From the NCBI GenBank assembly GCA_017409905.1, contig JAFQRV010000022.1:4383-68382 (forward strand): DNA of 64,000 nt. Direction: 5' to 3'. A program made the translations under genes and the position numbers. Shown in pieces: positions 1 through 56,834 of the stretch (position 1 is its first letter; the number at the start of each line of letters is the position of its first letter). Source of the DNA: Bacilli bacterium. Its GTDB lineage: Bacteria; Bacillota_I; Bacilli_A; ML615J-28; CAG-313. The notes under the pieces were generated by a model. It was given only the letters and a program-made list of their open reading frames with translations, made no database searches and had not been told where the DNA came from.

Positions 1-3000
1 TTTCACATAATTATAATAGATACCACCTTGTACATATCTAGATGATTGATATCTACTATTTAAATAATCGTAAACTATAATTCCTGATAAACCATCATAA
101 TCATACGTATAAACGAAAGAATAAGTTAATTCTTTATTATCAACATTAGAATTAGTATATGAATATCGGTTCTCACAAATCAATTTATTACCATCGTATT
201 TATATTCTATCAAATAATTTCCATTATTCTTTTGAACACGTTTACTGACTCTTTTGCCTAAACCATCATATTTATAATCAATTATATTAAACTCATTTGA
301 AGTATTATTGCCATCATAAATATATTTAGACAATAAGTTATTATACCCATATTCTAGTTTATTATTATTGATATAGCTTATATTACCAAACTTATCATAA
401 TATATTAAATTTTCATTAATATTCCCACCATTATAGATTTTATATTTACATAAATTATATCTATCATCAGTAGGTTCTTCCACTGGTATATGTTCATATG
501 TTTTGAAAGTAGATCCATTTTTTAATATTGAAACTAAATCTCCACTTTGTGAAGAATAATTATAATTAAATATACTAGTTTCATTTGTTTTTAAATTATC
601 AATTTTTTCTATTGATAAACGATCAACATCATCATAAGTAAAACTATACTCTACTGCATCTAAATCAGCTGTCTCTAAAGTATCGCTTCTTAATAAATTA
701 CTAGTAAAATATTTCCCTGATATTTTATTTTTAGTTATTTTTCCTGTTTCATCAATGTTAATCTCACTTGACAATGTTACTGAATCAGAAGAATAATATA
801 AACTTTTCCTTAAGCATAAATAATTAACTTTAGTAGGAAACATGATTTTTTTACATTCATCATTTGATGAATTACTAAAAGGAGTAGTATACTCAATATT
901 TTTTTCGAAACAAGATGTTGTATCATAGTATATCTTAGTATTATCAACAGAATGCACTTTGAAAAAAACATCCTCGGTATCACCATTTCTAAAGTATTCT
1001 TTTTCTGAACTGTAACCTAAATATCTACCTTTTAAATCATATTTATATTGTTTAGATGCTTGTTCTATTTCTTCATACATTTTATTAATTAAGCCAAGAT
1101 ATCTATAATATTTATTATTAGTGATTCTCGGAGTATAATATCGAGTTCTACCTTGAATAGTATCAGTTACTGTTTCTACCTTATATCTTAATCTTTTTTC
1201 TTCATCTAAAAGTATATCATATTCTACCTCGTTTTGCAAGTAAGAATTTTGTTGATAAATTGTTTCATTTGGCCCTACTAACTTATATGTTGATTTACTA
1301 ATAAAATCATTTTTGGTGTTTACATGAAGAGCATTTATAAATTCATCAAATATAGTAAGCGTATTATTACAATAATTATCAAAATATGTTGTATCATAAA
1401 TAATCTCTTGTGTCTCATTATAAGGAACATTATTCAATGTAAAATAAGCATCCTTATAATCATCGTACATTTGTAATTGTTTTTGTTCATACCCTTCTTC
1501 ATTATACTTTCTATTCAAAACTTTATCTACATTATGTGTTTCGTCATAAAATGTTAAAATTTCATTATTCATCCATTTTATTTTATCAAAGTTATTCCCA
1601 CCATAAGTATCAAAAGAATAAAATCTATCTTCAAGTTCTTTTTCATTTAAATACACTTTATTCAATCTTAAATATTTATCGTATTCAAATTTATATATTT
1701 CATTATCACTTTTCTTATAATACCTTACCAAGCCTTTATTATTACTTAATACCTCTACCTTTTCAATATCTTCTTCATGGGAAATCCCTTTTTCATCAAA
1801 CACTTCTATAACATGAGATATTGCTTTTAAACTATTATCAATCCAATTATAATCATATTTTTTAATGTTGTTTCCACATCTAACTTTATTTAGTTTTAAA
1901 TCTGGAGTATATTCAAATATTGTTTCAATTCCGTTATTATTTATCGAATCGCATACCTCTCGATCAATTGGATCTACATCATAATTATACAATTTTACCG
2001 AAATTGGATTTTCAATTTCATTTTCTTTATATACTAATATTTTTTCGATATTTCCATATAAATCATAATAATTTTCAGTAATAATGTTATATTCATCTTT
2101 TTTAGCTCTAAATGTGCCATCCTCATTATACCAAGTATAAACTAATGATGATATATCATCTGTTAAATCACATTCGGAATTTGTTAATGCCATCATTTTT
2201 TTCTCTTCACAATAATATTGATTTTTTAATACATCATAATCAAATGACATTACTGTGTCTTCTATTAAATATTTGTTGTTTTTGAAGAAAGTAACATTTT
2301 TCATTCTAAAATTAGCTGTTCTATTATTAAAGAAATCCAAATAAATTAAAAAATTTTGATATACTTTAAAATATGTATCTGAAACTTCTATTACTTTTCT
2401 TAAATTACAACAATGTAACTCATATCTAGCTTCATCTAAACATTTGGCCTTGTACATACTTTTATAAGTTTCAATTAAATCATTAATTGTAAAATAGTAA
2501 TCTTTATTAATATTTTTTTCAATAGGACTTGAACCGTTTAAATAACCAAATGTTTCAATATTATCTAGCCTATACATAAACATTTGATTATTTTCATTTA
2601 TACAATTTAACATCAAAAAATTAATACTACTTTTTTTAATTTTAACATCGGCTATTTTATATACATTTTTATCAACAAATTCAATTTCAATATAATTATT
2701 AGTTATACTATTAAAACTGTCTTCGTTCAATACAATGGGAATTTGAACATATTGAATAGTATCTGCTGGACTTGGTTTTATATATACAAATTCTTCACAC
2801 CCATTTATATTCAATAAAACTTTTTTAAAATCACTTATTTCAATATTATTTTTTAACCAGAAGGATACCACAAAGCTTCTATATTTTTCATCATCGTTCA
2901 CATTTAATGTTCCATCCGTCAATAATTTTTTAAATTTATTTACTGTATTAGTTTCAATACATAATTTATCACTTATTTCAATAAATTTATTATCCATTAA

Positions 3001-4137
3001 ATTTGAAACTGACGGTGTCAACGGAAATCCAGTATTTTTAAATTTAGATTTTAAAATTGTATCATATTCTTCTAATACGGAAATCGTTTCTCCTTCATTA
3101 TTTAAATAATAAACATCTATTAATCCATTTTTTTGTTGAACCTTTGTTTTTGAGTTATCATAAGTAATCCTAAATCTTTCATTAATGGTAGATAGATAAT
3201 AATCACTCGCTTTATCATCTTTATATTCACATTTATCATTTACATAAAGTTCTTCATCAATATAATCATCACCAAGATACATGTTAGGTATTTTTTCGAT
3301 ACTTTTCTTTTTCTTTTCAAAAAAACCACTACTGATTTCATGTGCCTTATAATTATTATAAGAAATAGATAAACCATTATTAGTTTGATAATTTATAATT
3401 CCTACCAATTTATTGTCAATATAATTAAAAAGATACTTATCTAATTCATATGTGCCAAACTGATAAGTTATTCCTTTTAAATCTCCATTATCATTATACA
3501 ACAACATATTTCGACTTTCTGATCCATCTAAAACATACTTGATTTTTCCATTATCTCCATAAATAATATTAATTTTATGATATGTTTTTCTTTCATCTTT
3601 TATAGAACTAATTTTATTATTTGAATAATCAAAACTTTTATAAATTTCATGATTAAATTTATTTCTTATTCCTATTAAATAACCTTTTTCATTAAATTCA
3701 AGAATTTCTTTTCCATTGTCAATTTCAAGTTTTTGTGATGAAATTAATAATCTCAAATTCAATCCGCCACTATCATATGAATATCTAATGTCATTATCTC
3801 TTTTATACTCAATAAATCGATGAATATTCCATTCTCCATCAATATAAACATAGTCACCATTTTCAATATCACCATAAGATTCATTATTTTGATATTGAAA
3901 AACATATTGTTGAAAATTAAATTTCCATTTATTATCAATACCTATTATTTTATTTGGAAATAATGTTGAATCAAATAATGAATTATATACTAATGACGTA
4001 TTAATTTGAAAGTTCCCCTTACTAATACTTAATGTTGGAAGATGTATTTTTAATCTTCCGGTTTTAATATTTATAAATGCAGTTAAATCTTTTGCATTCA
4101 TCATTACTTCATTTTGAAATACTTTACTATTATCCAT
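1..4137 (-). CDS. RHS/YD-repeat family protein, first 1379 codons only. The gene runs off the left window edge, so the C-terminal tip or toxin region is not visible.
   Basis: The frame stays open from the ATG at 4137-4135 to base 1, and 4137 is 3 x 1379. That explains its absence from the ORF track and the lack of any other minus-strand ORF in 4 kb. My own translation begins MDNSKVFQNEVMMNAKDL. Canonical YD repeats include IIDYKYDGLGKRVSK and IEYKYDGNKL (nt 180-300), YYDLYGNIEK (nt about 2050-2100), FDYSNNKISSIKD and LLYNDNGDLKGITY (nt about 3450-3650). TGRLKIHLPTLSISKGNFQINTSLVYNS near the N terminus resembles the first strands of Rhs shells. Confidence 0.85.
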   Translation of the reverse strand, partial: MDNSKVFQNEVMMNAKDLTAFINIKTGRLKIHLPTLSISKGNFQINTSLVYNSLFDSTLFPNKIIGIDNKWKFNFQQYVFQYQNNESYGDIENGDYVYIDGEWNIHRFIEYKRDNDIRYSYDSGGLNLRLLISSQKLEIDNGKEILEFNEKGYLIGIRNKFNHEIYKSFDYSNNKISSIKDERKTYHKINIIYGDNGKIKYVLDGSESRNMLLYNDNGDLKGITYQFGTYELDKYLFNYIDNKLVGIINYQTNNGLSISYNNYKAHEISSGFFEKKKKSIEKIPNMYLGDDYIDEELYVNDKCEYKDDKASDYYLSTINERFRITYDNSKTKVQQKNGLIDVYYLNNEGETISVLEEYDTILKSKFKNTGFPLTPSVSNLMDNKFIEISDKLCIETNTVNKFKKLLTDGTLNVNDDEKYRSFVVSFWLKNNIEISDFKKVLLNINGCEEFVYIKPSPADTIQYVQIPIVLNEDSFNSITNNYIEIEFVDKNVYKIADVKIKKSSINFLMLNCINENNQMFMYRLDNIETFGYLNGSSPIEKNINKDYYFTINDLIETYKSMYKAKCLDEARYELHCCNLRKVIEVSDTYFKVYQNFLIYLDFFNNRTANFRMKNVTFFKNNKYLIEDTVMSFDYDVLKNQYYCEEKKMMALTNSECDLTDDISSLVYTWYNEDGTFRAKKDEYNIITENYYDLYGNIEKILVYKENEIENPISVKLYNYDVDPIDREVCDSINNNGIETIFEYTPDLKLNKVRCGNNIKKYDYNWIDNSLKAISHVIEVFDEKGISHEEDIEKVEVLSNNKGLVRYYKKSDNEIYKFEYDKYLRLNKVYLNEKELEDRFYSFDTYGGNNFDKIKWMNNEILTFYDETHNVDKVLNRKYNEEGYEQKQLQMYDDYKDAYFTLNNVPYNETQEIIYDTTYFDNYCNNTLTIFDEFINALHVNTKNDFISKSTYKLVGPNETIYQQNSYLQNEVEYDILLDEEKRLRYKVETVTDTIQGRTRYYTPRITNNKYYRYLGLINKMYEEIEQASKQYKYDLKGRYLGYSSEKEYFRNGDTEDVFFKVHSVDNTKIYYDTTSCFEKNIEYTTPFSNSSNDECKKIMFPTKVNYLCLRKSLYYSSDSVTLSSEINIDETGKITKNKISGKYFTSNLLRSDTLETADLDAVEYSFTYDDVDRLSIEKIDNLKTNETSIFNYNYSSQSGDLVSILKNGSTFKTYEHIPVEEPTDDRYNLCKYKIYNGGNINENLIYYDKFGNISYINNNKLEYGYNNLLSKYIYDGNNTSNEFNIIDYKYDGLGKRVSKRVQKNNGNYLIEYKYDGNKLICENRYSYTNSNVDNKELTYSFVYTYDYDGLSGIIVYDYLNSRYQSSRYVQGGIYYNYVK

Positions 4138-5494
4138 TTTTCTTTTTTCTATCCTTTCTAAAAGTTTCTAAAACGGCCTCACTGTCTACAATTAATCTTG
4201 TTGAAAACTTTCCATCACATAAAAGAATTTTATTACCCCTTCCAGATATCAAAACTACATCTAATGGTTTAGCATCATAAATTGCTTTTTCTATGGCTTT
4301 TTTTCTATCAAAAATAATTTCTGATCCTATTTCGTTATCTAAATACATATCTAATTCTTTACAAATATCTGATAGTTCTTCTGCTCCACTATCACTTTCT
4401 GTGATATAAACATAATCTGCATATTTTTTTAATAAATCTGCCACATATTTTCTACTTTCATGAGTTTGCTCAATATATTTTTCAGTAAAAAAGCGTTTTT
4501 CCCAAGAATAATGACCAAAACCTAATGTTCCCATTACAACATTAATAGCTTTTATATGGCCTTGCTTTTTATATTGATATAATTCAAGCAAAATTGATGA
4601 AAGCTGACTATCAACAATAATATATCTATCTTTATACTTATAAAGTTCTGCTCTTCCAGGAATTCTAATGTTTTTTATTAATTCTTGAAATTTATTAAGA
4701 TTAAATAACCCTAATACATTTAGTGTTGTTATAACCCCTAGTACGTTTAAAGCATTATAATTCATAATTAAATTAGTATGTAATGAATACTCCCTACCAT
4801 TTAATAAAAAAGTCATATCTAACCCTTTTAGTGAATGTACTAAATCAACTAACAAACAATTTGCTGTAGTTTCATTAACATTTTTTACTTCTAAGATATG
4901 TCTTGTTGAAAAAACATATTTTTCGCACTCATTACATGATAATAGTGTTTCCAACAAATCTTTTGAATAATCTTGTAGTCCATATATACATTTTGTTTTT
5001 TTACTTGTATTTTCAAAAAATCTTTTTTTCAGTGAAACATACTCTTCTTCAGTATAGTTTTCTAAATTATGTTTGGGATTTAAATTGGTTAATAATTTTA
5101 TATCAAATTCAAAATTATCTAATAAACCTTTTTGAATTGTACTTTCATTTACTTCTAATATTAAAAAGTCCGGATCATATGCCTCTACTTCTTCAATAAT
5201 ATTTAATAAATCCTCTTCTTTATAAACCGCTACTTCGCATGCATTCTTATTAGAAATTCTACTTGCAGGTGAATCTATTTTTATACTGCTATATAAAATA
5301 CTTTTATAGCCTAATAATTTTAAATATTCATGAAGTAAAAAAGCAGTTGTAGATTTCCCTTTACTTCCTGTAATCCCAATAATTTTTGTTTTAAACGATT
5401 CTTTTCTTTTTTTATTTTGATATTCTCTCTTTATTTGTCTTGTCGCGACTAGTCCTTTTTTTAAATAAAACTCTTTTAACTTATCTAACTTCAT
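4130..5494 (-). CDS. Mur ligase family protein: a divergent homologue that lacks the N-terminal UDP-sugar-binding domain
   Basis: 454 aa. The P-loop IIGITGSKGKSTTA sits at about residue 40. Also present are LEVNEST, TNLNPKHN, PGRAELY, and a C-terminal ISGRGNK in place of GKGHE. Its stop overlaps the RHS start (ATGGATAA). Confidence 0.7.
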   Translation of the reverse strand: MKLDKLKEFYLKKGLVATRQIKREYQNKKRKESFKTKIIGITGSKGKSTTAFLLHEYLKLLGYKSILYSSIKIDSPASRISNKNACEVAVYKEEDLLNIIEEVEAYDPDFLILEVNESTIQKGLLDNFEFDIKLLTNLNPKHNLENYTEEEYVSLKKRFFENTSKKTKCIYGLQDYSKDLLETLLSCNECEKYVFSTRHILEVKNVNETTANCLLVDLVHSLKGLDMTFLLNGREYSLHTNLIMNYNALNVLGVITTLNVLGLFNLNKFQELIKNIRIPGRAELYKYKDRYIIVDSQLSSILLELYQYKKQGHIKAINVVMGTLGFGHYSWEKRFFTEKYIEQTHESRKYVADLLKKYADYVYITESDSGAEELSDICKELDMYLDNEIGSEIIFDRKKAIEKAIYDAKPLDVVLISGRGNKILLCDGKFSTRLIVDSEAVLETFRKDRKKKNG

Positions 5495-5503
5495 ATTTTT
5501 CTC

Positions 5504-6010
5504 CTAATCATCAGAAGATACTGAATCTGCTAATACTTCAATTTCAACGTCAATAGATCCTACTAACACTTCTGAATTATTTTCAAATAGTTTAATCGTG
5601 TGTGTATATATTTGTTCAGTCAATGAACTTAAACTTACACCAGTTTCAATACTTAATTGTATTTCAATCTTTTCCCCATTGTTTACTACTGTATTTAATA
5701 CAAAAGGACTATCACAAGTTGCTTCTGTTGTTACAGTAAATCTTCTATCAGTATCAACTATAAATTTATGAGTAGAATTAATTCCTTGCCCCTTTATAAC
5801 TTTTAAATTATCTTCTTCAATATAGTATCCTTGGCACAATAATGATAAATTTTTAGCATCTAGTGGGGTTCCTTGTTCATATACTTCTCCTTCACTTCTA
5901 GATAAGCTAACCTTCATTGTGCTTATTTCTCCCACAAAATCTCCTGTCATACTTAATACATTTAATGTAAACACATTTGGATTTTCAACATTTCTATTTT
6001 TAAATTTCAT
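5504..6010 (-). CDS. Hypothetical soluble protein, with a possible phage tail-fibre-like N-terminal motif
   Basis: 168 aa with no TM segment and a predicted beta-rich composition. The N-terminal ENPNVFTL...SRSEGEVYEQGTPLDAKNL resembles, from memory, the NPNR..L...EGTPLNAENL motif of Firmicute phage tail-fibre proteins. It sits 4 nt after the holin-like gene and 9 nt before the Mur-ligase-like gene. Confidence 0.5.
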   Translation of the reverse strand: MKFKNRNVENPNVFTLNVLSMTGDFVGEISTMKVSLSRSEGEVYEQGTPLDAKNLSLLCQGYYIEEDNLKVIKGQGINSTHKFIVDTDRRFTVTTEATCDSPFVLNTVVNNGEKIEIQLSIETGVSLSSLTEQIYTHTIKLFENNSEVLVGSIDVEIEVLADSVSSDD

Positions 6011-6014
6011 TTTT

Positions 6015-6266
6015 TTATTCTCCTTTTTTAATTTGTTTTATTATTTGATTTGTTCCAGTGGAACTTAATCCACTAATCATACCTATTATTATTTTTTCTA
6101 ATAAGTTATCTGTTTCTATTAAATAAATCCCTAATAACCCACCAATAATCATAACTATAATAGGTATGTATTTATAAAAATTTGGTTTTTCTTTAAAAAC
6201 CCTTTTATATAGTTCACCAACCATATAACTAACAACTAAGATTATTTCTATTCCTTTGTATTCCAC
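6015..6266 (-). CDS. Phage-type holin-like small membrane protein (resembles the Hol44 / holin superfamily V pattern)
   Basis: 83 aa with two to three hydrophobic helices. The layout VGELYKR...YIPIIVMIIGGLLGIY...IIGMISGLSSTGTNQIIKQIKK matches the remembered holin pattern (..vE.iK....iP.v...lG..lg....G...GLsAsG.y...K). A 2-nt gap separates it from the upstream gene. Confidence 0.6.
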   Translation of the reverse strand: MEYKGIEIILVVSYMVGELYKRVFKEKPNFYKYIPIIVMIIGGLLGIYLIETDNLLEKIIIGMISGLSSTGTNQIIKQIKKGE

Positions 6267-6268
6267 CT

Positions 6269-6544
6269 TTAACCTCCTTCAATAATCTTGTTTATAATAT
6301 CGATATTACCTTCAACTTTATTGATTCTTTCTAGTAAGCTTTTATAACATTCATCAACTTTATATAAATTCTTTTCTACTCTATCAACGCACTCTTTTAT
6401 ATAACTAATATCTGTTATAATAATGCCTTCCTTTTTGCCACTTTTTATATCTTCTTTGTGCCTGTTGTTTTTTAAGGCCATATATGCAAAATAAATACTA
6501 GAAATTGTTCCTAATATCGATATAATTGTCATCGCAATAGTCAT
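6269..6544 (-). CDS. Single-pass membrane protein with a C-terminal coiled coil (architecture like BhlA/UviB/XhlA)
   Basis: 91 aa. An N-terminal TM helix (MTIISILGTISSIYFAYMAL) is followed by a charged heptad-like region (VDRVEKNLYKVDECYKSLLERINKVEGNIDIINKI). It has a strong RBS, GAGGAGG, 8 nt upstream, and is the first gene of the operon. Confidence 0.55.
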   Translation of the reverse strand: MTIAMTIISILGTISSIYFAYMALKNNRHKEDIKSGKKEGIIITDISYIKECVDRVEKNLYKVDECYKSLLERINKVEGNIDIINKIIEGG

Positions 6545-6618: not shown

Positions 6619-7260
6619 TTAAACTTTTCCTTTTTTATACTTTTCTTTTATTTTTTTGAGTTTTCTAGAAATAGCTTGTTGAGATATACCTAATATATCG
6701 CCTACTTCTTTTTGTGTTAAAATTCTTTCTTTATCAACAAATAATTTTAAAAATGCTTTTTCTTCATCATCTAAATATTTTATATTATATGTATTATTAC
6801 TTGATAGTTTTATTATTTCTAAATATTTTTCATAGATGGCTTTTTCTTTTTCCTGTTTTTGATAAAAAGATATCCTAATTGATTTAAATCTTTTATTAAT
6901 ATAATTAATAAACTGATTTTCATTACAAAATAAAATAAACTCATTAATAAATAAATCTTTATTATTTACTCTTAACAAATCATCTTTATACTTTTCAATA
7001 AAAGCCAATAAATATTTATTTGTAATATTTTGATTTTCTATTTCTTGTTGATTTATCTTTATATTATAATTAATCTTAAATGTAATTAGTACGTTATATA
7101 ATCCCAATAATAATTCTTGATATATTTCTTCTTGATAACTGATGGGTATTTTTTTAATATTGTAATAAATTAAGTTTTTTAATTTTTCTAAAATTTTTTC
7201 AAAAAATATATCATCCTTAGTATTTTGATAGTTAATAACTAGTTTAATTAACGAGTTCAT
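6619..7260 (-). CDS. Sigma-70 family RNA polymerase sigma factor of the small two-domain type (comparable to the ECF or TcdR/UviA-like groups)
   Basis: 213 aa. The region-2-like N terminus is DDIFFEKILEKLKNLIYYNIKK...QEEIYQELLLGLYNVLITF. The C-terminal region-4 HTH is LTQKEVGDILGISQQAISRKLKKIKEKY. An N/K/I-rich linker joins them. Confidence 0.65.
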   Translation of the reverse strand: MNSLIKLVINYQNTKDDIFFEKILEKLKNLIYYNIKKIPISYQEEIYQELLLGLYNVLITFKINYNIKINQQEIENQNITNKYLLAFIEKYKDDLLRVNNKDLFINEFILFCNENQFINYINKRFKSIRISFYQKQEKEKAIYEKYLEIIKLSSNNTYNIKYLDDEEKAFLKLFVDKERILTQKEVGDILGISQQAISRKLKKIKEKYKKGKV

Positions 7261-11987: not shown

Positions 11988-12775
11988 TCTATTTCCTCCA
12001 TTTCTTCTAATTCTTTATTTATTTCTTCTTCCATGATGTTTCTTTCTTCATCAAAGATTCTCTTGCTATAAACTTTTATTGTTTCATCACTAACAATATC
12101 AATCACAATTAAACACATCTTCGTTAATGCAGTATTAATTGTTCCACTAACAATAATCTTTCTAATCCAATAGACAGGATTAGCATAGTTTAGTATTGTA
12201 AATAAGACCTTTCGAACGGGTCCTGTCTTTTTAATTGTTTTAACAGCCTTATTTTCTTTTACTTTCTTATAATAATCAAGCATTTTTAATACTTGACTAA
12301 TACTCATATTTTTAAAAGGTTTTAATACTTTCTTATCAAATACAGTATCTATTCTATCAGATATATAATGACATAAAATTAACAATTCATTAACATTCAA
12401 TTCAAATAACGGATATTTAGAATTAGGATAATACATTCCAGCAATACTTTTAACAGTATTCATAACTGTTGTTCCTAATACTTTCATTTTATCTGTTGGA
12501 CTAAATGTAACAGTTAATTCTACAAAATCTTTTTTAATATTTTTGATCATCTCTAGTAATTCATTATCACTAATGGTAGTAGGCATAATACTTACTGGAT
12601 TCTTCTTTTCGGCTTTTTTTAAAGATATTAATAAAAGAATACCATATAAAGATGCAGAAATAATAATACCTATTACTATTCCTAATAATAAAGTAACTAA
12701 TGTACGTACTTCAAATTTACCATTTAAGTCTTTAAATAACCAATTGAAAAAATTATCTACTTTTGTAAAAAACAT
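11984..12775 (-). CDS. Hypothetical single-pass membrane protein, translationally coupled to the FtsK-family gene
   Basis: 263 aa with one TM helix (LVTLLLGIVIGIIISASLYGILLLISL). An ATGA overlap joins it to the downstream gene. I recognised no family. Confidence 0.5.
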   Translation of the reverse strand: MFFTKVDNFFNWLFKDLNGKFEVRTLVTLLLGIVIGIIISASLYGILLLISLKKAEKKNPVSIMPTTISDNELLEMIKNIKKDFVELTVTFSPTDKMKVLGTTVMNTVKSIAGMYYPNSKYPLFELNVNELLILCHYISDRIDTVFDKKVLKPFKNMSISQVLKMLDYYKKVKENKAVKTIKKTGPVRKVLFTILNYANPVYWIRKIIVSGTINTALTKMCLIVIDIVSDETIKVYSKRIFDEERNIMEEEINKELEEMEEIE

Positions 12776-12911
12776 TTTATCACTCTTTCAGGTATATTTA
12801 TTTTACAACAAATTAACGATTTTGTAAATCATTTACAAAATAAATTCTCTTAATTAAATATTTTTATTTTTTTATTCTTTTTGATATAATATTAACAATA
12901 GGAGAATTACT

Positions 12912-14857: not shown

Positions 14858-15664
14858 TTAACCAAGTAAATTTTTGTAAACATAATTTACAGTAGGACCA
14901 TATTTAGATTCAATAAATTCTTTTACTTCTGGAAGACTTAATGCTTCAACTAAAATTTTGATTTTTTCACTATTTAAATCTTGAGTTCTTACCACAATAA
15001 TATTTGGATATGCAACATCTACTGATTCACCAAAAATCTTATATTCACTAGCTTTTGATGTGCCCCAAGCAGTTAATGCATAATTACCTGGAATTATTGC
15101 ATATCCACCTTCTGTTACTTTTTGATGTAAAAGTCCTGCATCAATACATTCAATTGAAACCCCAATTGAAGTTGTATATTCCGGATGTTGTGCATTAAAA
15201 TTATTTACATTATAAGAATCTAATATCCCATTAGCTACCAATAATTGATATGCTCTTTCTACATTTGTAGGATCATTTACAATGTAGATTTTTTTATTAG
15301 TAAAATCTGATATTTTTGTTTTTCCATATAAATTTAATGGCTCATTATGTACTTCACAAGCTGCCGAAAGATTAAAACCATAGTTTTGAATATCTTTATT
15401 TAAATATTTTGCATGTTGAAAGTAATTAGCATCAATTCCTTCATCATTTAAAGCTTTATTTAAAGTAGCCCAGTCTTGATACACTTTTACCTCTAGCGTA
15501 TAACCTTTACTTTTAATATAGTTTTGTACTGCTTCACAGTTAAGAATCTCAGCATGAGGTGATGGTGTACCTCCAACAATAATTGTTTTTTCTTTATCCT
15601 TACAACTTGTTAAAGTTAGAGTTAATAAAATTAACAAAAATAAATTTAGTAATGTTTTTTTCAT
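14858..15664 (-). CDS. metQ: Methionine ABC transporter substrate-binding lipoprotein (NlpA/MetQ family)
   Basis: 268 aa with lipobox LTLTSC and MetQ-like sequence. It is the last gene of the metN-metI-metQ block. Confidence 0.8.
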   Translation of the reverse strand: MKKTLLNLFLLILLTLTLTSCKDKEKTIIVGGTPSPHAEILNCEAVQNYIKSKGYTLEVKVYQDWATLNKALNDEGIDANYFQHAKYLNKDIQNYGFNLSAACEVHNEPLNLYGKTKISDFTNKKIYIVNDPTNVERAYQLLVANGILDSYNVNNFNAQHPEYTTSIGVSIECIDAGLLHQKVTEGGYAIIPGNYALTAWGTSKASEYKIFGESVDVAYPNIIVVRTQDLNSEKIKILVEALSLPEVKEFIESKYGPTVNYVYKNLLG

Positions 15665-15665
15665 A

Positions 15666-16325
15666 TTATTTTCTCCTTTTATCTATTCTTTTCGACAAAT
15701 ATAATCCACTCTCTTGGATTATTTGAACTATTATTACTACAAATAAAATGCATATCCACATTCCGAATTTGTTGGTACCATAGTAACCAAGATTAAAGGC
15801 TTCAACAATTAACCCTCCCCCTGCAATATAACCTGCAAATGATGTATAACCAATAATCGAAACAATAGTAACTGCAAAACCGGATATTAAAGATGGTTTA
15901 GCCTCACTTAGAAGCACTTTTGTTACTATTTGTAAATTTGATGCTCCCAAAGATTTAGATGCTTCAACTACACCATAGGGAACTTCAGTTAAACTTTGTT
16001 CAACCATTCTCGCAATAAATGCAAAACTTGCCGCAACCAATGGTACAATCATTGAATACCAATTACCTGACCAAGATCCTTTACCAAAAATAACATTAGT
16101 AACTGGGATAAATATTATTATTAATAACAAACAAGGTATTGATCTAAAAATGTTAACAATTGTCCCTAATATTGTATTGATAATTTTATTTGGTTTTAAA
16201 CCTTTTTTAGAAGAATTATATAAAATAATACCAGTAGGAAGACCAATCAAATAAGCAATAATTGTCGAAATTGTTGTCATTAGTAAAGTATCTTTAATGG
16301 CTTCTAAAAGATTCATCCAATTCAT
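15666..16325 (-). CDS. metI: Methionine ABC transporter permease
   Basis: 219 aa with five TM helices and the permease loop VEASKSLGAS. It overlaps the metN stop. Confidence 0.8.
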   Translation of the reverse strand: MNWMNLLEAIKDTLLMTTISTIIAYLIGLPTGIILYNSSKKGLKPNKIINTILGTIVNIFRSIPCLLLIIIFIPVTNVIFGKGSWSGNWYSMIVPLVAASFAFIARMVEQSLTEVPYGVVEASKSLGASNLQIVTKVLLSEAKPSLISGFAVTIVSIIGYTSFAGYIAGGGLIVEAFNLGYYGTNKFGMWICILFVVIIVQIIQESGLYLSKRIDKRRK

Positions 16326-17349
16326 CTGTAGATACCTCCTTATATTTAATTTTTTTAATATTTAGATATTTCTTTAGTTTGTCGATATCATTATCATAAT
16401 ATGGCAGTTTAATAATCATTTGACCATAAATTTTATCATCAACCACAAAGGAATTTGCGTAAACGATCGAAACTAAAATATTGCATTCTTGGATAATATT
16501 CGCAACTACTGGAGAATCCGTATCACCATTAAATTCTAATTTCAATAAATGAGAATCATGCAATTTAGTTCTAATATGTCCAGAATAAATTAAAGACTTA
16601 GCAGCATTAGTTTTAGGATTTAAAAATACTTGTGCTACTTCACCTTGTTCTACTACCTTATGATCAGCTAAAATTGCTACTTTATTACAAATTCTTTCAA
16701 TTACAGACATTTGATGAGCAATAATAATTATTGTTAAACCGAGTTCTTTATTTAGTTTTTGAAGTAAATCTAATATGGAAAATGCAGTTGTCGGATCTAA
16801 GGCGGATGTACATTCATCGCATAACAATATCTTAGGATTGTTTACAAGTGCTCTAGCAATCGCTACTCTTTGTTTTTGGCCACCTGATAATTCGCTAGGG
16901 TAAGCTTTTTTCTTATTTTCTAAGCCAACAAGTTTTAGCAATCTTTCAATCTTATTTATTGCTTCTTGATTTCGCTTATAACCTTTAGATAAAGTTAACG
17001 GAAATTCAATATTTTCAAATACTGTTTTTTGATTTAATAAATTAAAATCCTGAAAGATCATTGAAACTTCTTTTCGATAGTTTCTCAATTCTTCATTACT
17101 AAGAATTGAAATATCTACCGTATCTTTGATTTTATCATTAATGTATCTTGTATAATTAATAACCCCAGAATTCGCCTTTTCCAGTAAATTAATACATCTA
17201 ACAAGTGTTGATTTCCCAACTCCAGACAAACCAATTACCCCAAAGATATCCCCTTTTTCAATTTCTAATGAGATATTATCTAAAACTGATATTATACCTT
17301 TTTCACTTTCGAAGGTTTTTGTTAAATTTTGAATACTTAATATTTGCAT
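16294..17349 (-). CDS. metN: Methionine ABC transporter ATP-binding protein with a C-terminal NIL domain
   Basis: 351 aa with Walker A GLSGVGKST, signature LSGGQKQRVAIARAL, Walker B ILLCDE, and a C-terminal regulatory domain of about 100 aa. Confidence 0.85.
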   Translation of the reverse strand: MQILSIQNLTKTFESEKGIISVLDNISLEIEKGDIFGVIGLSGVGKSTLVRCINLLEKANSGVINYTRYINDKIKDTVDISILSNEELRNYRKEVSMIFQDFNLLNQKTVFENIEFPLTLSKGYKRNQEAINKIERLLKLVGLENKKKAYPSELSGGQKQRVAIARALVNNPKILLCDECTSALDPTTAFSILDLLQKLNKELGLTIIIIAHQMSVIERICNKVAILADHKVVEQGEVAQVFLNPKTNAAKSLIYSGHIRTKLHDSHLLKLEFNGDTDSPVVANIIQECNILVSIVYANSFVVDDKIYGQMIIKLPYYDNDIDKLKKYLNIKKIKYKEVSTDELDESFRSH

Positions 17350-36718: not shown

Positions 36719-38251
36719 TTATCCAATTAACTCATTCAATGCATTTTGATATCTTTCTTGGTTATTGCTTAATATAAATTCTGTTCTTGCACCTTCATTT
36801 AATAAACCTAAATACCAATATTCATACATAAAAGTATTAGTATTTAAATATTGTTCAACTTCATCAATATATTCAAAATATCCATATTTATCAAGGTTTT
36901 CTTCAACACTCATAATGGCATCAACTGATGCTGTTGACTTAATTATTTCACTTAAATATGTTTTATATCTATCTTCTTTTTGAACATCTGAATAATCCAT
37001 AACTGGTGGAAGTCCATTTAAAAAGTCATCAAGAATATTAAATAATACTTTAGAAGTTAAACCATTTTCTCCATTAGAAATATTATTAACTACATAAGTT
37101 GAAATTGGTTTACGAGGAATCTTATATAAAGCTTTTGTTGATGCATCACCATCAGCAGTTGGATAAGGAACAACAGAAATATTCATCTTCTCTTCAATTG
37201 TATTCGCTGGCACAAATCTCATTGTACTTGTTAAATACCATAATTCTCCAGGTTGGAATAATTGATTACCATTAATAAAATCACCACATACAACATTTGG
37301 TGTTAAAGACCACATTTTACTATTTTTAAGTGGTTTTAATCTTTCAATAACTCCTAGTAATTCTTCAGTATAAAAATTCACTTTTTTATTTTCTAAATCA
37401 ACTAGTTTTCCACCTTGTGAAGCAAAAATGCCTTTAATTAGAAATTCATCAAATCCCCCATAACCATACATTTCTGGATCAGTTTCTTTTCTATTTTCAT
37501 CAAATGCTTGTTGAGCTGTTTTTAATAATTCACTAAATGTTGTCCAATCCCATTTACCTTCATTCCATAAAGTTGCAGGATCATCTAAATTATATTCATC
37601 AATTAAATCTTGATTATAATACAAGAAATAATCAGCATGTTCTTCTTCTAAAGAATAACCATAAATTTTATTATTATAATTATTAGCTAATTTGCTTTGT
37701 GAAGCATTATAATTAAAATCTGTAAAAAATCCATTAATTTGTTCCCATAAAGAAGTTTCATCATTATATTGAACATTTTCTAATATTGCTATACTTTCTT
37801 TTTCTGCTAATTGAGAAATCCAACTAGAAGAAACTGCAAAAATGTGACCAGTATTTTTACCTGAGTTATTAATCCATTCAACACGATTAGTTCCCCAAGA
37901 AGCTTCTACAGGAAATCTTTCAATAGAAAGATTAATATTATAAGCATCTTGAATTTCATATAAACGATACAATTTCTCAGATTTTCTTTCACCAATAAAA
38001 TCACCTGCATTAGGGTCTATTTCTTCAGGGTTTCCATGAAATAATTTAATAGTCATCCCTTTTCCATCAAAATTATTTCTGTTATACCGCCACTCCCAAG
38101 TCAATGGATCATCGCATTTCGCTTGATTTCGATCTTCAGAACAAGTTATTGAATTTTCATAGTCATTATCATTTCCATTATTATTTTGGATACAAGATGT
38201 ATTTATGACTAACAACATAAAAAATATAATGATCAATAAATATCTTTTCAT
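36719..38251 (-). CDS. Orphan solute-binding-protein-like lipoprotein, paralogue of the C-terminal half of ORF 28379-31207
   Basis: 510 aa with lipobox VINTSC. Conserved with the paralogue are the Cys pair followed by PLTWEW, FDGKGM.IKL.HG.PEE.DP, NI.LSIE, DPATLWNEGKWDWTTF and VVPYPT.DGDA. The overall composition resembles family-1 sugar ABC binding proteins. Confidence 0.65.
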   Translation of the reverse strand: MKRYLLIIIFFMLLVINTSCIQNNNGNDNDYENSITCSEDRNQAKCDDPLTWEWRYNRNNFDGKGMTIKLFHGNPEEIDPNAGDFIGERKSEKLYRLYEIQDAYNINLSIERFPVEASWGTNRVEWINNSGKNTGHIFAVSSSWISQLAEKESIAILENVQYNDETSLWEQINGFFTDFNYNASQSKLANNYNNKIYGYSLEEEHADYFLYYNQDLIDEYNLDDPATLWNEGKWDWTTFSELLKTAQQAFDENRKETDPEMYGYGGFDEFLIKGIFASQGGKLVDLENKKVNFYTEELLGVIERLKPLKNSKMWSLTPNVVCGDFINGNQLFQPGELWYLTSTMRFVPANTIEEKMNISVVPYPTADGDASTKALYKIPRKPISTYVVNNISNGENGLTSKVLFNILDDFLNGLPPVMDYSDVQKEDRYKTYLSEIIKSTASVDAIMSVEENLDKYGYFEYIDEVEQYLNTNTFMYEYWYLGLLNEGARTEFILSNNQERYQNALNELIG

Positions 38252-38259
38252 ATTACCTC

Positions 38260-39027
38260 CTAGATGATTATTTTATTAACTACTCCTAAACAATTATATT
38301 CTTTCATCTTTTCTTTAAATTCCATAGGATCACCTGTAGTGTATATTGTAGTTGTTGGATTGACTACTTTATTTAAATCGAGTTTTTCGTTTAAATAATT
38401 TACTACTACTTCATCAGAAGTTATATAATTAATATTTCCTAAATACTTTTTATAATAATCTATTACGTAACCAAAGTGTGTACATCCACAAATTAAAGTA
38501 TCAATATTTGTATTTTTGAAATAAGTAAACTTTTCTTTTAATGATTCATTTAATTTAGTTGAATACTCTTCTTTTGTTAAAACATTTTTACTTTCGATAA
38601 TATCAACTAATTCACTATATTTTAATGGATATACAGTAGTATTTAAGTTTGTTAAGTATTCTTGATATTTACCAAGTTCAATTGTTAGATTGGTTGCGAT
38701 AACACCAATTTTTTTATTTTTTGAGATATTTGCTGCATGAATACTAGTTAATCTGATTATTTCGTAAACATTATCATATCGTTCTTCTAATAAACCATAA
38801 ATTGAAGAAGCAGTGTTACACGCAATTACAATAGCTTTTGAATCTTTAAAGTATTCAATTATTTCTTTAATTCTTTTCTTTAAGAATTCGATTGATTTAG
38901 TTCCATAAGGAAGATTTAATTCATCCGCAATATAAATATAGTTTTCATTTGGATATTTTGTTCTTAAAGCATTAAAAATATTTAATCCTCCAAGACCTGA
39001 GTCAAATACTACTATTTTGTCTTTCAT
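38260..39027 (-). CDS. murI: Glutamate racemase
   Basis: 255 aa with VFDSGLGGL and the catalytic Cys motifs IACNTAS and CGCTHF. Confidence 0.9.
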   Translation of the reverse strand: MKDKIVVFDSGLGGLNIFNALRTKYPNENYIYIADELNLPYGTKSIEFLKKRIKEIIEYFKDSKAIVIACNTASSIYGLLEERYDNVYEIIRLTSIHAANISKNKKIGVIATNLTIELGKYQEYLTNLNTTVYPLKYSELVDIIESKNVLTKEEYSTKLNESLKEKFTYFKNTNIDTLICGCTHFGYVIDYYKKYLGNINYITSDEVVVNYLNEKLDLNKVVNPTTTIYTTGDPMEFKEKMKEYNCLGVVNKIII

Positions 39028-39029
39028 AA

Positions 39030-41342
39030 TTAACCTCTTCTAAAACCAATAATATCTGCTAAAACCCAAAGATATTTACCAGTTGTATGGCCCCAAATTT
39101 CTTTATATACTGCTTGTGTGGCAGTTGGCCAATATGGTTCATCTGATTCATTTAGTGTTTCAATACCAACCGGAAGTGCTCCAACCATTTGTGGGGAGAA
39201 TGCTACATATAATGGATGATAATTATGCCCTTCTCCATACATTGTTGATGAAGCAAATGGATTTCTTCCAAACATCCATTCAAATTGGTCAATACAAATT
39301 TGTTTTAATTCTTCATCTTGAAGAATTCTCGCAATCATCGATACAGCTTTTGTTTTACTAAGTAATGTTGCATGGAATCCTCTTCTTTGAATTGAAACAG
39401 GTAGTTTTCTTAAATATACATTTTCTTCTATCTTTCTTCCACATTTAGCTTGATTTTGTAATTTAATTAAAGCCTCTGGAATTGTACCATATTGTGGAGG
39501 AACAGTGAATCTTTCCATATTAAATTTATCTAATATATATATATGTCCTGGTAACATTCCATATGGATATGCTTCATCTTTAGTCTTAATTATATATTCT
39601 TTATATAACTTAATACAATTCTCATATTCTCGGTAATGAATGGATTTTTTATAAACTTCCATTAATTTAACAATTCCATGAATTGGTGATTGTTCGTGAC
39701 CCCTATGTTCATAAGTTAAGATATATTTATGAAGAGGATCTTCATAGAAGAATCCTTTAATCTTTTCTTCTCCAAGCCCTATTGTTTCTTGACAAGACAT
39801 AACAATTTGTGCATACTCTTCTGAAATCTTTAAATAAGTTTCATCTTTTGTTTCTAAATATAATTCACAAGCAGCTAGGATTCCGTGACCAGCAACTTGT
39901 GAGTCAACATTTGTTCCCCAACGTTTTGTATGAATTCCTTGTTTATATCCAACATAGGCAAATTTAAAATCTTCAATAGCACTTCGTCTACACCAATCAC
40001 TAAAGATTGGATCAATTTCTTTAAACATTATAGCGGCTTTTGCTTCTGCAGCACTTGCTGTGAAGTTTTCAAATGGACCATTTTCCGCAACACTCTTTTT
40101 TGTTCCTTCATCATCAACTGTTAATACATTATCACGCCATACATTATAAAGTACAGCCATTGCCCGTTGACCATCACCAAATCTAGTTCTAAGTAACCAG
40201 TTAATTCCAACTCTTGCTTCTTCTAAAAGTCTTAAATATAAATCATAATCTTTTTCTTTATAAACTTCTGCTAAATCTAAAATAGCATGAGCCATTTCAG
40301 CAGTACATATTTCGAATTGTGATACGTCTCCCGCATCATGCCATCCGCCAAAGTTTGGTACACTTCTACCGTCTTCATGGATAGTTCGACAATTTAAATG
40401 ACATGGACTATGAACTCCTGGGACATCTTCTCCACATCTTAGTAATCTTAAGAAGTTCATACTCTTCCAAATTGAAGAATCATAACATAATCCACTAATA
40501 TCAAATAAAGGGGTTTGAATATTACCAACTTTTAAATAATATTCTCCTTCTTTTCTTATTTCACTAAAATCTAAAATAGTAAAACTTCCTAAATCATTTA
40601 GAATATTTTTAACTTCTTTTTCTAATACTAATTCATTATTAGAATTAAATAATTTAAAAGTATTTACATCTTGTTTACATACCGCAATCTTTTTAGCATT
40701 TGGAAAATAACCAACATGAGAGTATGCAATTCTATCTTCAATATCCCAACCTAAATCATAATCAACATCAACAATATCTGCTGTAATACTGTCTATATAA
40801 AATTCCACACCACTAAGAGCCTCTGGTGGTGTTCCCATCATAAAGCAAGCAATTTGTAAAGCTTTAACTTTATCTCTTTTTAATTTATCAATTTCCCAAA
40901 CAACATGATTCCATTTATTTGGTGTAACACTAGGTGCATTATGTAATGTAGTATTATCATTTACAATTCCAAAGTGACAATAAAAATTAGTAAATCCAAT
41001 AGCTTTTGGATATACATGAAAACTTAGACGATTATATTTTTCTAAATTTATGTTATCTAAATTAACTTGCATACTAATAACTGGTCTTGGTCCTACTTTT
41101 ATTACTGTCGTATCACCTTTCATCATGAAACTTGCATTATTAGTTTTATATAAATCATGAGAAATAGTATATTCTACTCCTTCTTTAATTGTTACATTAT
41201 TTATATTAGTTCCATCATATAAAACAATCGAATCTTTTACTTTTTTATTAATCCATCTAGTATTCGCATCTTCTTCTAAATTAGCTTTCATGAATAAATG
41301 AGCATTCATACTAGTTCTTTTTAATTCATCAAGTTTTTTCAT
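39030..41342 (-). CDS. Cytoplasmic GH9-like (alpha/alpha)6-barrel glycoside hydrolase family protein with an N-terminal beta-sandwich region
   Basis: 770 aa with no signal peptide. GGWHDAGDVSQFE matches the GH9 GGWYDAGD motif. FGRNPFASSTMYGEGHNYHP resembles the GH9 C-terminal block, but the HHR triad is not evident. Confidence 0.5.
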   Translation of the reverse strand: MKKLDELKRTSMNAHLFMKANLEEDANTRWINKKVKDSIVLYDGTNINNVTIKEGVEYTISHDLYKTNNASFMMKGDTTVIKVGPRPVISMQVNLDNINLEKYNRLSFHVYPKAIGFTNFYCHFGIVNDNTTLHNAPSVTPNKWNHVVWEIDKLKRDKVKALQIACFMMGTPPEALSGVEFYIDSITADIVDVDYDLGWDIEDRIAYSHVGYFPNAKKIAVCKQDVNTFKLFNSNNELVLEKEVKNILNDLGSFTILDFSEIRKEGEYYLKVGNIQTPLFDISGLCYDSSIWKSMNFLRLLRCGEDVPGVHSPCHLNCRTIHEDGRSVPNFGGWHDAGDVSQFEICTAEMAHAILDLAEVYKEKDYDLYLRLLEEARVGINWLLRTRFGDGQRAMAVLYNVWRDNVLTVDDEGTKKSVAENGPFENFTASAAEAKAAIMFKEIDPIFSDWCRRSAIEDFKFAYVGYKQGIHTKRWGTNVDSQVAGHGILAACELYLETKDETYLKISEEYAQIVMSCQETIGLGEEKIKGFFYEDPLHKYILTYEHRGHEQSPIHGIVKLMEVYKKSIHYREYENCIKLYKEYIIKTKDEAYPYGMLPGHIYILDKFNMERFTVPPQYGTIPEALIKLQNQAKCGRKIEENVYLRKLPVSIQRRGFHATLLSKTKAVSMIARILQDEELKQICIDQFEWMFGRNPFASSTMYGEGHNYHPLYVAFSPQMVGALPVGIETLNESDEPYWPTATQAVYKEIWGHTTGKYLWVLADIIGFRRG

Positions 41343-56802: not shown

Positions 56803-56834
56803 TTCTCTAATTCCTTTCATTTGAAATTCACATT

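Follow-up and report, generated by a model that had tools for sequence, protein, structure and literature searches.

Mur ligases phosphorylate a terminal carboxylate and then couple an amine to it. MurE, the family member from which we start, ligates meso-diaminopimelate (DAP) or L-Lys to uridine diphosphate (UDP)-N-acetylmuramic acid (MurNAc)-L-Ala-D-Glu. To our knowledge, every Mur-ligase relative without domain 1 uses a non-UDP substrate, namely, FolC, PgsB/CapB, MurT, CfbE, and the M domain of cyanophycin synthetase. The last of these works on a peptide chain, at the side chain of its C-terminal Asp. We analyzed a 64,000-nucleotide (nt) stretch of DNA from a Bacilli bacterium (GenBank assembly GCA_017409905.1, contig JAFQRV010000022.1, positions 4,383 to 68,382 of the forward strand; here called the window), in which a gene for a 454-amino-acid (aa) Mur ligase homolog lies between the gene for a 168-aa protein, p168, and that for an RHS toxin, in a cassette that also encodes a holin. 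Holin-dependent release has been described for Tc toxins and large clostridial toxins (PMC10847048, PMC12150058, PMC9527704), and how signal-less RHS/teneurin-like toxins exit the cell and are targeted is still an open question (PMC13018210).

Our analysis points to a predicted catalytically competent, ATP-dependent carboxylate-amine ligase that would have arisen from MurE by loss of the UDP-binding domain 1 and that probably modifies the tail of the protein encoded upstream, rather than taking part in cell wall synthesis. We are highly confident that the ligase is a dedicated component of its cassette. That the C terminus of p168 is its substrate, a proposal drawn from sequence comparison, we put at about even chances.

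The ligase contains both Pfam domains that define the Mur ligase superfamily, each above threshold: Mur_ligase_M (PF08245; residues 41-257; E = 1.1e-18; 68.4 bits, cutoff 24) and Mur_ligase_C (PF02875; residues 346-420; E = 5.5e-7; 30.9 bits, cutoff 28.4). Its top NCBIfam model was TIGR01085 (murE), at 134.2 bits, half of the cutoff of 257.3, with an alignment restricted to positions 82-448 of 472. Scores for other models were far lower: murD, 40 bits; murF, 31; CfbE, 26; murC, 23; folC, 20.4 (cutoff 162.7); and cphA, 15.5 (cutoff 850). The NCBIfam listings held no MurT or PgsB match for the ligase, Pfam found no DUF1727 on it, and no glutaminase family appeared among the six cassette proteins scanned. 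Thus, the ligase is much nearer in sequence to MurE than to the domain-1-less relatives and, unlike MurT/GatD, has neither a GatD partner nor DUF1727. It also fell below the MurE equivalog cutoffs (TIGR01085, PRK00139; at most 128 bits, against at least 373 for equivalogs), as did 10 further subfamily members, none of which scored above 150 bits.

Only 39 residues precede the P-loop of the ligase, compared with a median of 106 in 42 canonical MurE sequences. Because the profile alignment also begins at position 82 of 472, domain 1 is absent, as the initial annotation of this DNA had noted. In all 10 additional members tested, including longer ones of 490-533 aa, the alignment with the murE profile likewise started at position 70-86. 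Since even the longer members start there, lack of domain 1 is the defining trait of the subfamily.

The initial annotation had read a series of Mur motifs in the protein, and all of them are in place: IIGITGSKGKSTTA (residues 38-51), LEVNEST (112-118), TNLNPKHN (136-143), PGRAELY (279-285), and GRGNK (418-422). It had also called the enzyme motif-degenerate, which the conservation pattern contradicts. When 23 members of the subfamily were aligned with 42 canonical MurE sequences, 25 of the 32 columns conserved at ≥90% in canonical MurE stayed identical in the subfamily, among them K47 (P-loop), E114, N137, H142, K156, N250, G280/R281, D295, and R397. In the literature, the positions of this set are assigned as ATP/Mg ligands, the carbamylated lysine, and further Mur invariants. 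The seven columns that differ are fixed within the subfamily (for example, N replaces S116 and E replaces S117). The catalytic invariants K47, E114, H142, K156, N250, R281, and D295 were invariant or nearly so in the subfamily alignment (A1), and LEVNES, TNLNPKHN, PGRAE, TESDSG, and GRGN were invariant in members sharing just 46-53% identity.

Relative to MurE, the Glu/His Mg ligands, the carbamyl-Lys position, and the Arg of PGR-E are thus kept, as is the P-loop, while LEVSS has changed to LEVNES and xDH to PKH. The DNPR-type amino acid specificity motif (DNPR for DAP, or the Lys-type variant) is replaced by SDSG in the window ([SN]D[SNP][GA], or more broadly [SN][DE][SNP][GA], in the subfamily), and GKGHE by GRGNK (GRGN[RK]). 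Because both DNPR and GKGHE have given way to fixed new motifs, the pocket has been remodeled. The ligase also differs from MurE by an insertion after the G-x-x-G motif of domain 3.

Structure prediction agrees with this placement. The AlphaFold 2 (AF2) model of the ligase was confident (predicted local distance difference test [pLDDT], 89.5; predicted template modeling score [pTM], 0.89), and its best PDB matches were MurE enzymes, with which it shares the fold of the central and C-terminal domains (PDB 4bub, 8g6p, 4c12, and 1e8c), and the plant MurE-like protein PAP11, all at a template modeling (TM) score of ~0.7. MurF, the cyanophycin synthetase M domain (7lgj), MurC, and MurT ranked lower, with the MurT structure (MurT/GatD, 6gs2) at rank 46 and a TM score of 0.46. 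The M domain, MurT/GatD, PgsB/CapB, FolC, and CfbE lack the UDP-binding domain, as the ligase does, and among them the M domain, with its action on a C-terminal Asp side chain, is the nearest mechanistic precedent.

The ligase represents a new, well-delimited Mur-ligase subfamily. A word-index search returned 339 homologs, mostly of 448-460 aa, from metagenome-assembled genomes (MAGs) labeled "Bacilli bacterium" and "Acholeplasmatales bacterium." At 50% identity, ~60 homolog clusters had E ≤ 1e-30, whereas canonical MurE reached just 75-90 bits. The system is common in human-gut Bacilli: a single ligase cluster occurred on 161 contigs, and a single p168 cluster occurred on 243. An unbiased metagenome scan with a P-loop-free ligase alignment gave 80 loci, which formed 34 clusters at 90% identity and were then de-replicated. 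In the A1 profile scan of genome contigs, the P-loop pattern drew almost exclusively canonical MurE, and the sole relative was locus L005. No relatives were found in IMG/VR viral contigs, and phage GenBank records yielded only murE-like genes at 21-29% identity.

A few loci depart from a single intact ligase gene. Ligase copies are split or frameshifted in L128, L137, L157, and L165. A second Mur_ligase_M-like open reading frame (ORF) occurs near the ligase in L141 (41-1093, a weak match, upstream) and in L173 (1976-3049, a tandem paralog, downstream); some systems may thus carry out two ligations in sequence.

The key partner, overlooked by the initial annotation, is the gene directly upstream of the ligase. 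The C-terminal Asp of p168 is the only conserved residue of its family. Word-index searches with p168 gave few matches, Pfam and PHROGs gave none, and a PDB profile search was unspecific; aBig_2 inserts were found only in long variants. Among 28 diverse upstream proteins of 157-363 aa (alignment A3), mean column identity was 17%, and the sole column conserved at ≥90% was the last residue, Asp, or Glu in one clade. This acid follows a short Ser/Pro/Gly-rich tail with the consensus S-x-x-P-x-D (for example, SVSSDD, STTPED, SITPDD, STNPLD, PGQGND, TGPGE, NPSGD, and LGVDD). An ORF of at least 100 aa lies immediately upstream of the ligase in 24/24 lineages, and a terminal D/E was present in all 24 de-replicated lineages and in 15/15 p168 clusters at 40% identity (D in 14). 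The background is low: 14.5% of 420 other ORFs from the same loci end in D/E, and 4% end in D. We saw no clear covariation between D-type or E-type tails and ligase pocket residues, with just one E-type clade for comparison.

The tail is also portable. In L156, the protein that precedes the ligase (342 aa) shares 45% identity (E = 1e-88) with one of 335 aa that follows the ligase in L158. Their alignment extends to the final strand (...LEYHYL), and the extension PIGVND is present on the L156 copy only. In L158, the position upstream of the ligase is occupied by a different, 158-aa protein, and this one bears the tail SLGVDD. Because these paralogs differ in tail according to their place relative to the ligase, the acidic tail belongs to the slot beside the ligase and not to a protein family.

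In one lineage (L152, 11053-13633; L158, 3688-5251), the ligase and RHS genes are separated by two additional genes, one encoding a tail-less paralog of the upstream-type protein. The upstream genes of L152 and L158 look tail-fiber-like by sequence, but their PHROG matches are only to families of unknown function (phrog_3971 and phrog_34255).

Ligases of 31-36% identity, found by a representative search, occupy contexts other than the RHS cassette. In four of the five distant contexts examined, the ORF before the ligase again ends in Asp: ...SGSGSASD in L173, ...SPGSGSGSTGD in L174/L175, ...VITGGVID in L176, and ...TIGGGWD in L177. The upstream protein of L174, of at least 1889 aa, contains a Collagen repeat and a Head_fiber_dimeric domain immediately before the tail and matches PHROG tail-protein and tail-fiber (host specificity) families (E = 5e-40 to 1.5e-34). 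The L177 ligase lies amid phage-like genes, with a weak tail-protein match and a major-head-protein match; the same contig encodes a BclA_C-domain protein (11992-12847) and the start of an 8469-aa ORF (15450-17305). Since L176 has no RHS gene downstream of its ligase, the constant partner of the family is an Asp-terminated, fiber-type protein. The RHS cassette looks like a co-option, in agreement with its phage-type holin, phrog_1863 gene, and sigma factor.

The contigs of L173-L176 contain no in-frame stops when read with translation table 4 but 2-27 with table 11, i.e., TGA is read as Trp. Because TGA is apparently a sense codon, these contigs therefore come from Mollicutes-like hosts or their phages. 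The Lys-/Glu-rich N-terminal helix of the distant ligases is sometimes encoded as a separate ORF of 38-54 aa (L174, 5690-5854; L176, 628-756; L177, 7904-8020), immediately before a ligase ORF that starts with the P-loop, and it is altogether missing in L160-L162.

The cassette has a conserved order, namely, the sigma factor, phrog_1863 protein, and holin where present, then p168, the ligase, an RHS gene of ~1700 aa, and a small gene (Table 1). Four gene-called contexts had this identical order with different flanking genes each time, and gut-metagenome relatives of 30-53% identity share the cassette at unrelated genomic sites. The co-occurrence with RHS genes that the initial annotation had proposed counting was strongly positive: among the 26 lineages whose sequence reached far enough downstream, 24 have an RHS homolog after the ligase (2.7-kb window), a 25th (L152) has its RHS start 2.9 kb downstream after two extra genes, and L135 alone has none. 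Two assemblies carry two cassettes on a single contig (L112/L113 on ODUN01000006 and L104/L114 on OOZQ01000003). The paired cassettes are complete, lie ~240 kb apart, and differ in their RHS genes and p168 types (187 aa versus 359 aa with aBig_2 inserts).

Table 1. Cassette features in the window
Feature	Coordinates	Strand	Evidence
RHS toxin, first 1379 aa (gene leaves the window; 1696 aa in full)	1..4137	-	Homology to DUF6531/RHS_repeat/PT-HINT protein; locus L169
MurE-derived ligase without domain 1, 454 aa	4130..5494	-	ORF call, Pfam/NCBIfam, alignments
p168, 168 aa, fast-evolving, proposed acyl substrate	5504..6010	-	ORF directly upstream of ligase
p168 C-terminal tail, S-V-S-S-D-D	5507..5524	-	Terminal Asp codon at 5507-5509
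Holin, 83 aa, Phage_holin_5_2/Hol44 type	6015..6266	-	Pfam PF16079, E = 5.1e-11; PHROGs phrog_1129 holin
p91, 91 aa, phrog_1863 (family of unknown function), hydrophobic N-terminal segment then charged region (read from sequence)	6269..6544	-	PHROGs, E = 3.5e-11
Sigma-70-family regulator, 213 aa, first cassette gene	6619..7260	-	Pfam Sigma70_r4, E = 5.6e-6; NCBIfam sigma70-ECF superfamily; PHROGs RNA polymerase sigma factor

Sigma factor homologs occupy the equivalent position in L085, L091, L108, and L151, and the phrog_1863 protein is kept just upstream of the holin in relatives. By BLAST, a Hol44-type holin is present in 8 of 21 de-replicated lineages; in L139, a holin of another family (Holin_LLH) lies between the ligase and the RHS gene. 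Within the window, the gaps from p91 to holin, p168, ligase, and RHS are 2, 4, 9, and -8 nt, and a scan of the cassette found no terminator-like site. Because of these gaps and the lack of a terminator-like site, the natural reading is that p91 to RHS would form one operon. Promoter-like sites in the cassette did not exceed the shuffled expectation. The initial annotation had based coupled translation on an overlap between the ligase stop (4130-4132) and the RHS ATG (4135-4137). This 8-nt overlap, ATGGATAA, is real in the window, but the spacing in relatives is -8, +4, or +18 nt, and because of this range it is not a general property.

We infer that the cassette is mobile and phage-derived and regard it as a new form of holin-linked RHS toxin locus. 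Type 10 secretion loci offer a close comparison, as these also place a phage-derived holin and an alternative sigma factor beside a very large signal-less toxin (Yersinia/Photorhabdus Tc with RHS-type TcC; Clostridioides difficile PaLoc tcdR-tcdE-tcdL) (PMC10847048, PMC12150058, PMC12485765). The window toxin is of RHS type, as is TcC, and the Phage_holin_5_2 gene (6015-6266) stands beside its putative cargo genes, which the holin is predicted to export. Unlike type 10 loci, the cassette has no detected peptidoglycan hydrolase or spanin (Pfam and PHROGs scans of cassette ORFs gave no hydrolase domain), its conserved accessories are p168 and the Mur-type ligase, and its hosts are uncultured low-GC gut Bacilli.

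The downstream gene is an RHS gene, as the initial annotation had proposed. The part of the ORF inside the window has no Pfam match, but residues 1-600 can be aligned (E = 8e-25) with a protein of 1728 aa bearing DUF6531, RHS_repeat, and PT-HINT. The complete gene, taken from the window's own 93-kb contig (L169), encodes 1696 aa and contains the core end motif RYYSPELGRF...NLYTYAVNNP, followed by a Gly-rich hydrophobic C-terminal domain. This homology, the core end motif, the C-terminal domain, and the small gene that follows are those of an RHS/YD polymorphic toxin, with the toxin and immunity functions predicted. Neither the RHS protein nor p168 has an evident signal peptide, as judged from the sequence by eye. 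Gram-positive RHS/YD toxins (WapA, teneurin-like; PMC13018210) share with the cassette the RHS shell, core end motif, variable C-terminal toxin, small downstream gene, and orphan modules. They differ in that the window RHS protein has no Sec signal or wall-binding domain, and an obligatory upstream p168-ligase pair is unreported for those systems in the literature searched.

Beyond position 1 of the window (L169, 16462-19063), the RHS gene is followed by a 145-aa gene, presumed to encode immunity, and then by two more ORFs, of 255 aa and again 145 aa. The 255- and 145-aa pair looks like the orphan toxin-end plus immunity module of other Rhs loci; none of the three ORFs had a Pfam match.

Taking the ligase, the tail, and the cassette together, we propose the following course of events. 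The ligase would bind the flexible C-terminal tail of p168 (S-x-x-P-x-D) in the cytoplasm and phosphorylate the alpha or side-chain carboxylate of the terminal Asp/Glu, as MurE does with the terminal D-Glu of UDP-MurNAc-L-Ala-D-Glu. An amine, most likely a free amino acid, would then be coupled to the activated carboxylate. The matured, fiber- or Ig-like p168 could work with the signal-less RHS toxin as a surface-binding or anchoring subunit, its conserved N-terminal motif being the likely docking end, and both may exit through the holin, via a lesion or lysis. In evolutionary terms, a protein tail would be the smallest step, because the MurE substrate itself ends in D-Glu: the predicted acyl substrate would still end in an acidic residue, and MurE would need only to drop UDP recognition and accept a protein tail ended by Asp/Glu.

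Several observations weigh against this proposal. Catalytic residues are not kept everywhere: His142 is lost in L005 and L148, and both His142 and Lys156 are lost in L149 and L160-L162, yet the Asp-tailed upstream gene is retained. These lineages keep the P-loop, PGR-E, and GRGN and may be pseudo-enzymes or use a different catalysis, so that catalysis may not be universal in the subfamily or the tail may serve binding only. L178 is the exception among the distant contexts, having no Asp-terminated neighbor beside its ligase. The p168 model was poor (AF2 pLDDT, 51), with generic Ig-like matches only and a C-terminal half predicted as a beta-sandwich. A phage-fiber origin of p168 itself was not confirmed by PHROGs, PDB-profile, or phage tblastn searches. 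The terminal acid could also be conserved for another reason, such as RHS docking or metal binding. Finally, in lineages with very short gaps, the Shine-Dalgarno site of the ligase overlaps the last p168 codons.

Such an overlap, as a constraint forcing the terminal GAT/GAC codon, was considered and rejected for at least 10 lineages because their AGGAG sits between the two genes, 5-26 nt beyond the stop codon of p168; for the lineages with very short gaps, it may still apply. The N-terminal motif of p168, QYPNR...EGxVxxxGTPLNAxNLN, may be of a kind typical of phage tail fibers, but tblastn against phages gave no confirmation even at E = 5, and the link to phage fibers is instead based on the distant clade.

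Among the alternatives, the ligase might act as a rogue MurE that loads UDP-MurNAc-peptides or lipid II with an incorrect or additional amino acid, locally weakening or editing the wall for passage of the ~190-kDa toxin or for lysis of the producer and thereby standing in for the type 10 hydrolase. We consider this unlikely. The domain with which MurC-F hold UDP is absent in all members, the DNPR-type and GKGHE motifs are replaced, and neither the invariant, portable C-terminal Asp of the upstream gene nor the pairing with phage tail fibers in the distant clade, including the case without a downstream RHS gene, would be explained. These points stand against the fact that MurE is the closest family and its catalytic residues are retained, that the cassette has a holin and no peptidoglycan hydrolase was found in it, that the host produces peptidoglycan (ftsW, murG, and murB are in the window), and that holin-dependent release of large toxins is established for Tc toxins (PMC10847048) and C. 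difficile TcdE (PMC12150058). Of the roles suggested by the initial annotation, the evidence comes nearest to ligation onto a carrier; the lost UDP domain is hard to reconcile with stem-peptide editing, as is a conserved ligase beside variable toxin ends with self-protection.

It is also unlikely, in our judgment, that the ligase joins two macromolecules, linking the terminal Asp of p168 to a Lys or the N terminus of the RHS protein, in the manner of Pup/PafA, or to a stem-peptide amine of peptidoglycan as a sortase-independent wall anchor. The conserved, tightly packed order of p168, ligase, and RHS would suit this, and an acid after a Gly/Pro/Ser-rich tail recalls ligation tags in general. 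The RHS protein is nevertheless an unlikely acceptor, because across 35 RHS partners, whose N termini vary, the first 700 residues contain no Lys position with ≥80% conservation, and because the distant clade has the ligase with an Asp-terminated protein but no neighboring RHS. Known Mur-family acceptors are, moreover, small (amino acids, dipeptides, and ammonia).

Very unlikely is a purely noncatalytic role, in which p168 and RHS would use the ligase fold as a scaffold, a chaperone, or an adaptor that binds the tail. There is a parallel in PAP11, one of the best structural matches (see above), which serves the plastid RNA polymerase as a structural subunit; the lineages without His142 and Lys156 that still keep the gene and the p168 tail would also be accommodated. 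Counting against such a role, the P-loop, the carbamyl-Lys position, Arg281, and the two positions of the Mg ligands do not vary in the window ligase or in most other lineages, the pattern expected of selection for ATP-dependent catalysis. The initial annotation had called a housekeeping role unlikely, and we consider negligible the chance that this is the essential MurE of its lineage with a shortened N terminus, beside an RHS gene by accident. No other Mur ligase occurs in the window, in ~9.1 kb of further contig past its high end, or in any cassette locus, but the scores are far under the cutoffs (134 versus 257 bits; ≤150 versus ≥373 for equivalogs), the cassette sits at unrelated sites, occurs twice per contig, and has split or frameshifted copies, and its RHS and p168 neighbors are conserved.

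To return to modification of the p168 tail, a folded protein encoded by the neighboring gene is predicted as the substrate, which sets the ligase apart from the domain-1-less relatives and would be new for the Mur family. Full-text literature searches pairing Mur ligase with Rhs, holin, or polymorphic toxin turned up no account of the system. By analogy only, Pup-PafA and RimK-S6 would share the acyl-phosphate activation of a protein's terminal acid followed by amide formation, with enzymes of unrelated folds (glutamine-synthetase-like and ATP-grasp). A more specific and quite unlikely extension is that the ligase is the first Mur-family enzyme to take a folded protein as acyl substrate and add a peptidoglycan-type (di)amino acid to it. 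The fiber tip would then have a stem-peptide-like end (-Asp/Glu-Lys or -DAP) that wall transpeptidases of the producer or target could cross-link, giving covalent, sortase-independent capture of the fiber by peptidoglycan.

If p168 is the substrate, the reaction would be a new enzymatic modification of protein C termini, built from a cell wall enzyme and used by phage fibers and by an RHS toxin system, and the system would define which accessory genes serve a holin-linked route of RHS delivery in Gram-positive bacteria. A ligase recognizing a short, portable Asp-ended tail could serve as a protein-tagging tool. Whatever the mechanism, the MAG labels "UDP-N-acetylmuramyl tripeptide synthase" and "Mur ligase family protein" are misleading, and metabolic reconstructions should leave the subfamily out of their murE counts.

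The true peptidoglycan genes of the window lie far from the cassette, as the initial annotation had observed, with ftsW, murG, murB, and a murI-like gene at 33.6-39.0 kb. This cell wall gene cluster is fragmented, and mraY, murD, and murE are not in it. Two large ORFs stand apart from it: a 2876-aa ORF at 48190-56820 (minus strand), with no Pfam match at E ≤ 1e-5, and an ORF of at least 1935 aa without matches on the same contig just past the window (L171). A 510-aa ORF without a Pfam match (36719-38251) lies just upstream of ftsW-murG-murB. The murI-like racemase gene (38260-39027, minus strand) adjoins a gene for a 770-aa GH9/CelD_N cellulase-like protein (39030-41342, minus strand).

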